The notes under the pieces were generated by a model. That model saw only the letters and a program-made list of their open reading frames with translations. It ran no database searches and was not told where the DNA came from. Of a stretch of 64,000 nucleotides of DNA, positions 59,146-59,825 are shown one piece after another (position 1 is the first letter of the stretch; each line of letters opens with the position of its first letter). Source of the DNA: Escherichia coli (lineage in GTDB: Bacteria; Pseudomonadota; Gammaproteobacteria; Enterobacterales; Enterobacteriaceae); assembly GCF_003334405.1 (NCBI RefSeq), contig NZ_QOWM01000001.1; one strand, 5' to 3'. The position numbers were made by a program, and so were the translations under genes.

Positions 59146-59199
59146 TGAGTTCCAAATTATGCCCAATGAGGTAGATTCATTGGGCATAATTGCTCATCA
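59141..59199. repeat. Long inverted repeat immediately after sixA (terminator-like, no T-run)
   Basis: ctgatgag...aattatgcccaatga-ggtagat-tcattgggcataatt...ctcatcag. Confidence 0.4.
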
Positions 59200-59825
59200 G
59201 GCAGCGGATATCTGTCAACCTCACTACTATCGAAGACTCTCCCCATCTATAAATAAAACACCTTTAACTTTCATTCGGAAAGTATTCTTCTGCGCGTATC
59301 TTGATTTTGCCCAAAGTTACATGTTGAAATGAATAATGTCTGTTTGACACTCATTATCATTTATTAATACAGATAATGGAGAAAATAGAGTTGAATAATC
59401 AGGCAGGACGTAATTGAAACTTGATTAAATTCTGGCTATAGTGTTTATATATTATATCGACAAAAGCGGGTTAATGCCAATCGCATTATATGTTCATTGT
59501 TTGTTTTTTAAGCTATTGGCATTCATTGTTGATATACTTCCTGTTTTTTCTAAATATATATTTCGTGTTTTTTTAGAAGATCCTTAAGATAATCTTTCCC
59601 CTATCAATATATTAATTAAATCTACATTTACTCATTAGTAAAATTAAATTGAATCAGGGGAGTGAAAACATCACTATTCGACCCCACACCAACGAATACA
59701 TTTTTTACGACCTGTTTTTTTGGATCGCATGCCGTATTCAATGGCTGGGTATAAACATTGGCTATTGACTGAATCAATGTATTGCAATGTTTATATTTTA
59801 ATTATTTATAGTTTAAGGACAAATA

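Follow-up and report, generated by a model that had tools for sequence, protein, structure and literature searches.

The 680 bp between sixA and yfcV in a K-12-like Escherichia coli (positions 59146-59825 of the window, by which we mean the whole 64,000-nucleotide stretch of DNA analysed) raise the question of what so long an ORF-free stretch does at the head of a fimbrial operon: does it carry a switch or a regulatory RNA for these genes, or is it made up of the end of one transcription unit and the silenced control region of the next? A first-pass annotation, made from the sequence, had described it as the largest ORF-free spacer of the window, extremely AT-rich and beginning with a hairpin of roughly 59 bp, and had suggested control by H-NS and, in some cases, by invertible switches or small RNAs.

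Gene order and composition of the sixA-yfcV spacer

The spacer lies between the following genes:

55003-56313: fadI
56313-58457: fadJ
58660-59145, + strand: sixA, phosphohistidine phosphatase, the gene upstream of the spacer (ORF list and RefSeq annotation of matching genomes)
59826-60389, + strand: yfcV, major fimbrial subunit and gene 1 of the yfc chaperone-usher operon (ORF list and RefSeq annotation)
60471-63116: yfcU, 3' of yfcV
63136-63888: yfcS, 3' of yfcU

The claim that this is the window's largest ORF-free spacer holds for ORF cut-offs of 60 and 80 aa: across six frames, 59146-59825 is the longest stretch without an ORF of at least either length, and at a cut-off of 100 aa it is exceeded by 30133-31308. 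Its composition was also described correctly, since the 500 bp with the lowest GC content in the 64 kb (28.8%, against 48.3% for the window overall) start at 59351; taken together with 10 bp on either side, the spacer has 31.9% GC. The next lowest-GC stretches of the window are ~51150-52600 and 41900-42500 (31-34% GC). The former aligns around yfdF and the fadL-yfdF spacer, near the published promoter island yfdF/mlaA, and the latter is, by K-12 alignment, the emrK-evgA spacer.

At this locus the window reads as the opposite strand of the E. coli K-12 map, and a window position x is found at 2515472 - x in NC_000913.3. The two sequences differ by one SNP across the 2.3 kb matched, at 59536, which is the sole difference in the spacer: the window has A, and MG1655 and BW25113 have G. 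A is also the base in L004 and L005, two related alleles, which makes G look like the derived state in K-12. Further away, about 10.2 kb of K-12 BW25113, corresponding to the intS...torI prophage beside tRNA-Arg, are missing at a junction at 49112-49127, and positions 1-11434 are not collinear with K-12 past nupC, where K-12 has an IS4-family element. The missing 10.2 kb and the non-collinear start indicate that the strain is derived from K-12 or very closely related to it, but is distinct from both MG1655 and BW25113. In the window the usher gene, yfcU, has an intact ORF of 881 aa; it is annotated as a pseudogene in BW25113 (internal stop) and in MG1655; position 62207, within the gene, is C in the window and G in BW25113.

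In other genomes, IS1 has inserted at two independent sites of the locus: at 59370-59379, ~450 bp upstream of yfcV, in XJW9B277 (at least 18 further genomes give the same match pattern), and at 59852-59860, within the first yfcV codons, in strain C9. On the other side of sixA, the supplementary data of Adams et al. 2021 include minus-strand RNA 3' ends at 2456833 and 2456929. These fall in the fadJ-sixA spacer (window ~58543-58639), where the sixA start codon follows after 21 and 117 nt, and could point to a promoter belonging to sixA or to attenuation of the fadIJ transcript shortly before this gene.

Hairpin and C-rich tract after sixA

Two features occupy the sixA-proximal part of the spacer:

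59137-59205, + strand: sixA 3' stem-loop (fold energy, z-score, covariation and copy number)
59186-59303, + strand: C-rich, G-poor tract resembling a Rho loading (rut) site, directly 3' of the hairpin

The hairpin sets in 5 nt ahead of the spacer, in the last sixA codons, and the sixA stop codon (59143-59145) sits within it. It contains a perfect 15-nt inverted repeat (59155-59169 / 59177-59191) separated by 7 bp, and in the fold 59141-59150 pair with 59192-59201 and 59155-59170 with 59176-59191 (26 bp). The hairpin initially placed at 59141-59199 was essentially right: it folds over 59141-59201 and can be extended to 59137-59205 by three extra pairs at 59137-59139 / 59203-59205. It folds with a free energy of -40.6 kcal/mol (z = -7.2), a stability that 0 of 200 dinucleotide-preserving shuffles matched.

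A 70-nt hairpin query matched 3100 of 5426 complete E. coli genomes, at one place per genome (maximum two), and no plasmids. The allele of the window, here called K-12-type, is carried by about 57% of complete E. coli genomes, and the outer stem, CUGAUGAG / CUCAUCAG, is specific to it and lengthens the hairpin. A shorter GC-rich hairpin occupies the same place after the sixA stop codon in O157-type, B2-type and a third E. coli allele type; E. whittamii, E. albertii and Escherichia sp. E1V33 likewise have a hairpin right after the stop codon, and the E1V33 sequence is identical there to the O157-type allele. In most of these other alleles a T-run follows the hairpin, which makes it a canonical intrinsic terminator; this U-run is seen in the alleles of O157-type, B2-type, L007 and E. 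albertii. None of the loci scanned outside Escherichia has yfcV downstream of sixA; there, different terminators or REP-like elements come next.

Base pairing in the stem has been kept as its sequence changed. The core reads ATGCCCGATG...CATCGGGCAT in O157 and E. albertii and ATGCCCAATG...CATTGGGCAT in the window, a compensatory G-C to A-U change. A 12-bp consensus stem is common to eight alleles, with changes on both sides in 6 of its 12 pairs, and 89.6% of its cells are paired, a figure that 0 of 500 shuffles attained (79% paired in shuffles); in a control in which the partner was slid, 20-41% of stem cells were paired. The single copy, the same position in different lineages and the covariation lead us to read the hairpin as the sixA terminator stem, kept as an RNA structure. 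The idea that it takes part in fimbrial regulation or in a switch was not borne out, as the allele comparison and the covariation assign it to the 3' end of sixA.

The hairpin could also be viewed as an element acting at the level of DNA, either a palindromic protein-binding site or the remnant of a mobile element or dispersed repeat. A perfectly palindromic 15-bp core, interrupted by 7 bp, and an outer stem confined to the K-12-type lineage, would suit such an element. However, dispersed repeats (REP/BIME, ERIC, MITE) are found in many copies, and this hairpin is single-copy in the 3100 genomes that have it, with none on plasmids; MG1655 has no annotated repeat feature at this position; and pairing that is kept across alleles though the sequence changes fits an RNA stem, not a protein-binding site. 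We consider a DNA-level element very improbable, and retain the RNA stem of the sixA 3' end as our reading.

The K-12-type allele differs from its relatives in what follows the stem. On the + strand the next sequence is GCAGCGGAUAUC, with no U-run, so that a GC-rich stem-loop lies directly after the gene and the other hallmark of an intrinsic terminator is missing. This stem without a U-run on the sixA strand explains why a canonical terminator scan of 58900-60000 returned no terminator-like site. The hairpin thus resembles the intrinsic terminators of other Escherichia sixA alleles in its position, its core (ATGCCC.AT ... AT.GGGCAT) and its compensatory changes, but differs from them in the absent U-run and in a stem extended to 26 bp; unlike theirs, K-12-type termination appears to be Rho-dependent and to occur ~70 nt further on.

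Evidence for Rho comes from the C-rich tract and from published transcript data. At 59186-59303, C outnumbers G by a ratio of 2.2-2.6, which exceeds the 99th percentile for 78-nt windows across the whole window, and the tract is the C-rich, G-poor untranslated segment expected of a Rho-dependent terminator. Adams et al. 2021 performed DirectRNA-seq with and without bicyclomycin, and their supplementary file 2 gives a Rho termination region with its best position at 2456198(-), where bicyclomycin raises the downstream coverage from 73 to 738 reads (Rho score 9.29, p = 1e-41). This position maps to window position 59274 on the + strand, within the C-rich tract and ~70 nt past the hairpin, the peak being coarsely placed as the Rho scores in that data set are computed over 800-nt windows. 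The bicyclomycin-dependent rise could in part come from de-repressed island promoters (see below) rather than from sixA read-through. The searchable supplementary text of Adams et al. 2021 lists no Term-seq 3' end at the hairpin base, and it is for this reason that we infer, rather than take from those data, a role for the hairpin as a trimmed 3' end. Another Rho region in the same supplement, 2455977(+), corresponds to window position 59495 on the - strand; a Rho region on this opposite strand fits the clearing of stray island transcripts by Rho.

Promoter island and conserved blocks upstream of yfcV

The distal 150-200 bp of the spacer, with the hairpin and the C-rich tract, are part of the sixA end and lie outside the island that takes up much of the remainder. 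This spacer is already known: it is a catalogued H-NS-bound promoter island, and as such an ordinary feature. The island and the two promoter-like sites that matter here are as follows:

~59360-59848, no strand assigned: promoter island 2453647_489 (yfcV/sixA), from PMC3661553 Table 1
59414-59442, + strand: sigma-70 promoter-like site TTGAAA-17-TATAGT (scan, 10 of 12 matches)
59451-59480, - strand: TTGGCA-18-TATAAT, the strongest promoter-like site of the spacer (scan, 11 of 12 matches), pointing at sixA

The island's extent was converted by arithmetic from older MG1655 coordinates and may be a few bp off. The promoter islands of E. coli K-12 (Shavkunov / Panyukov / Ozoline) are 78 AT-rich, H-NS-bound regions with many potential starts and little productive transcription; they reportedly yield abortive products, not full transcripts (PMC3661553). 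The spacer is itself on this list, is AT-rich and promoter-dense, binds RNA polymerase holoenzyme in vitro and likewise stands upstream of a poorly expressed, island-like fimbrial operon, so that there is no material difference between it and the class.

For H-NS our evidence is second-hand, from the tables of PMC3661553 and PMC3946193. In the former, Panyukov and Ozoline tabulate island 2453647_489 as H-NS-bound in the Kahramanoglou and Oshima data sets, and in the latter, the RpoD genomic-SELEX promoter table of Shimada et al. flags the spacer as containing an H-NS site. These tables support the H-NS control that the first-pass annotation had proposed, which is the part of its interpretation that stood; the inversion and the small RNAs did not. 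Shimada et al. also report an RpoD-holoenzyme SELEX peak within the spacer and predict a 'constitutive' yfcV promoter, TTGAAA-17-TATAGT (PMC3946193 Table 2). The hexamers and spacing of this prediction, published without base coordinates, equal those of the site at 59414-59442. An RpoS-holoenzyme peak has been reported for the spacer as well (PMC5493296), and the SMRT-Cappable-seq supplements make no mention of sixA or yfcV. Only the -10 hexamer of the 59414-59442 promoter is common to the B2-type allele, and the -35 is unconserved elsewhere; yfcV may be driven by this predicted distal promoter or by a proximal one, near the conserved blocks at 59685-59747 (below).

Both low GC content and a high density of promoter-like sites, the marks of a promoter island, are found here. 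There are 5.9 promoter-like sites per kb in the island compared with 1.4 in the whole window (4.3x), and 66 TANNNT hexamers per kb compared with 25. Set against composition-matched shuffles there is no excess (4 found, 3.5 expected), and the density of promoter-like sites therefore follows from AT-richness.

According to published work, the yfc operon is functional but cryptic, and H-NS generally represses the cryptic chaperone-usher fimbriae that commensal E. coli carry (PMC3559732). Expression of yfcV rises strongly upon over-production of TosR in CFT073 (log2 fold change 5.2; PMC5956150) and upon over-production of BolA (PMC4337573); the ChIP-seq peak of CsiR at 2454000 and its 1.9-fold effect on yfcV (PMC5217608) are too weak to build on. 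Bicyclomycin also up-regulates yfcV (PMC10980228). In this, in its low GC content, in its occupancy by H-NS and in having Rho regions on two strands in the Adams 2021 supplement, the spacer resembles horizontally acquired AT-rich DNA silenced by H-NS and Rho, but yfc, unlike recent islands, is found as a 'core-associated' locus in nearly all E. coli.

Comparison of the window's spacer (59146-59825) with five diverged alleles (L002, L003, L006, L007 and L012) shows how little of it is shared. Nucleotide identity between lineages is 42-58% in the spacer, compared with 93-99.8% in sixA and 64-86% in yfcV, and the divergence begins exactly at the sixA stop codon. The pattern suggests that the control region either was exchanged by allelic replacement or turns over very fast. 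The blocks kept in all six alleles lie mostly in the 200 bp nearest yfcV:

59665-59673: conserved block AAAACATCA (six alleles compared)
59685-59698, + strand: conserved block CACACCAACGAATA, candidate regulator-binding site, in six otherwise strongly diverged alleles
59735-59747, + strand: conserved block TATTCAATGGCTG, candidate proximal regulatory element, in all six alleles
59812-59828, + strand: yfcV ribosome-binding region and start codon (TTTAAGGACAAATAATG), invariant in all alleles, with conservation through 59837

The TATTCAATGGCTG block is 79-91 nt upstream of the yfcV ATG. Judged by this alignment, the blocks conserved in all six alleles are the best candidates for real control elements. 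A CRP-like reading of AGTGAAAACATCACT was rejected on inspection of the allele alignment, as the half-site spacing is wrong and the sequence unconserved.

The strong - strand site invites a further explanation, in which TTGGCA-18-TATAAT (59480 to 59451) drives an unannotated RNA of ~310 nt that ends at the hairpin and acts as an antisense to the sixA 3' end or as a regulator. The promoter has 11 of 12 consensus matches, and its -10 lies within a block, ATATTATA (59449-59456), that is conserved in most alleles. Read on the - strand, the hairpin folds with -36.6 kcal/mol and is followed directly by UUUUGCC, and the hypothetical 321-nt transcript folds with z = -4.2, although this z-score is mostly owed to the hairpin. 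Rho-sensitive transcription on the - strand is present in the Adams 2021 supplement, but the region given there (59495) is upstream, not downstream, of the promoter in question. The -35 hexamer and most of the transcript body are unconserved, at 42-58% identity between alleles, and promoter islands reportedly yield abortive products in place of full transcripts (PMC3661553). A scan of 58000-60800 against Rfam, on both strands and at E <= 1, found no match, and MG1655 has no annotated feature in the spacer; together with the poor conservation of the spacer, this leaves the small RNA raised in the first-pass annotation without support, and we regard a discrete - strand RNA as quite unlikely. It is slightly less doubtful, though still improbable, that the K-12-type hairpin would serve as a two-way insulator, forming the 3' end of the Rho-terminated sixA mRNA on one strand and a stop for island transcripts on the other. 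If so, sixA would be shielded from antisense transcription, possibly including a discrete ~310-nt RNA. Our preferred reading remains a hairpin belonging to the sixA transcript, next to a silenced promoter island.

Possible modes of switching and silencing of the yfc operon

We wondered whether the spacer might resemble fimS, the invertible promoter element upstream of fimA, with a trans-acting tyrosine recombinase switching the yfc fimbriae on and off. The two have much in common: the fimE-fimA spacer is similar in size and composition (481 bp, 32% GC), and fimS, like the yfc spacer, is AT-rich, a few hundred bp long, located upstream of a chaperone-usher major subunit gene, H-NS-bound and on the promoter-island list. 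The yfc spacer also contains two perfect 10-nt inverted pairs, at 59247-59256 / 59802-59811 and at 59628-59637 / 59824-59833. However, 10 nt is the longest perfect long-range inverted repeat in the spacer and a length reached by 27% of 300 shuffles, and the left arms of both pairs are unconserved in other alleles. The search for fim-like flanking inverted repeats that the first-pass annotation had called for thus yielded pairs at chance level. The window does not contain the fimS repeat TTGGGGCCA, and there is no recombinase gene near the spacer, the neighbours being fadJ, sixA, yfcV, yfcU, yfcS and yfcR; a recombinase acting in trans would not show in this comparison of neighbours.

For a survey of complete genomes we used as a query 59257-59801, reverse-complemented between its native flanks, to which an inverted spacer would match with more than the 51% coverage that the native arrangement gives. 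None of the 5426 complete genomes matched this query fully, and the best coverage, 51%, was that of the native arrangement. The result applies to the ~3070 genomes in which the K-12-type allele covers at least 80% of a spacer-spanning query of 801 nt, the O157-type and B2-type alleles being outside its reach. As a positive control, the same design was applied to fimS and detected the opposite orientation in 251 of 4726 genomes, which indicates that the method detects real switches. Unlike fimS, the yfc spacer therefore has neither conserved flanking repeats nor adjacent recombinases, and it is inverted in 0 of 5426 genomes as against 251. The proposed invertible switch found no support in any of these respects: for the K-12-type allele a fimS-like element is largely refuted, and we give it next to no credence.

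Switching without inversion is also known from fimbrial operons: in the Pap system, Dam methylation of two GATC sites in Lrp-binding sites produces heritable ON and OFF states. The spacer does have two GATC sites, at 59579 and 59723, which would be the starting point for an epigenetic switch of this kind. However, ~2.0 such sites are expected in 680 bp (calculated by hand, p ~0.003 per position), the two are 144 bp apart rather than 102 bp, neither is conserved across alleles, and the spacer has no papI- or papB-like ORF, nor any ORF of at least 60 aa. A Pap-like Dam/Lrp switch is accordingly among the least probable explanations of the locus, on a par with inversion.

We think it likely that the spacer joins the 3' end of sixA, formed by hairpin and Rho, to a yfc regulatory region silenced by H-NS and Rho, with no inversion of DNA. 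According to this model, the hairpin at 59137-59205 would have as its ancestor the intrinsic terminator found after sixA across Escherichia, its stem having presumably been lengthened and its U-run lost in the K-12-type allele. Termination of the sixA transcript would now be brought about by Rho loading on the C-rich 59186-59303, and the hairpin would probably provide the stable 3' end left after exonuclease trimming. The DNA from ~59300 to 59825 would be the regulatory region of the cryptic yfc operon, AT-rich and with many promoter-like sites; it binds RNA polymerase with sigma-70 or sigma-S, yet would be coated and silenced by H-NS, with Rho removing stray transcripts on both strands. Expression of yfc would then require anti-silencing, for example by over-produced TosR or BolA or by inhibition of Rho, and not DNA inversion. 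Of this model, the sequence features, the comparison of alleles and the published data on protein binding and bicyclomycin are established; the hairpin as a 3'-end protector and the choice of promoter at yfcV are inferred.

The region can be described as textbook-style AT-rich fimbrial control DNA silenced by H-NS and Rho, and the value of the analysis is mainly one of annotation. For the biology of these fimbriae, the test of 5426 genomes with its fimS control argues against phase variation of yfc through DNA inversion. For sixA, the K-12-type allele offers a case in which an intrinsic terminator would have been turned into a hairpin and a Rho-dependent terminator. Finally, the extreme divergence of the spacer between phylogroups may bear on the use of yfcV alleles as a marker of uropathogenic E. 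coli.
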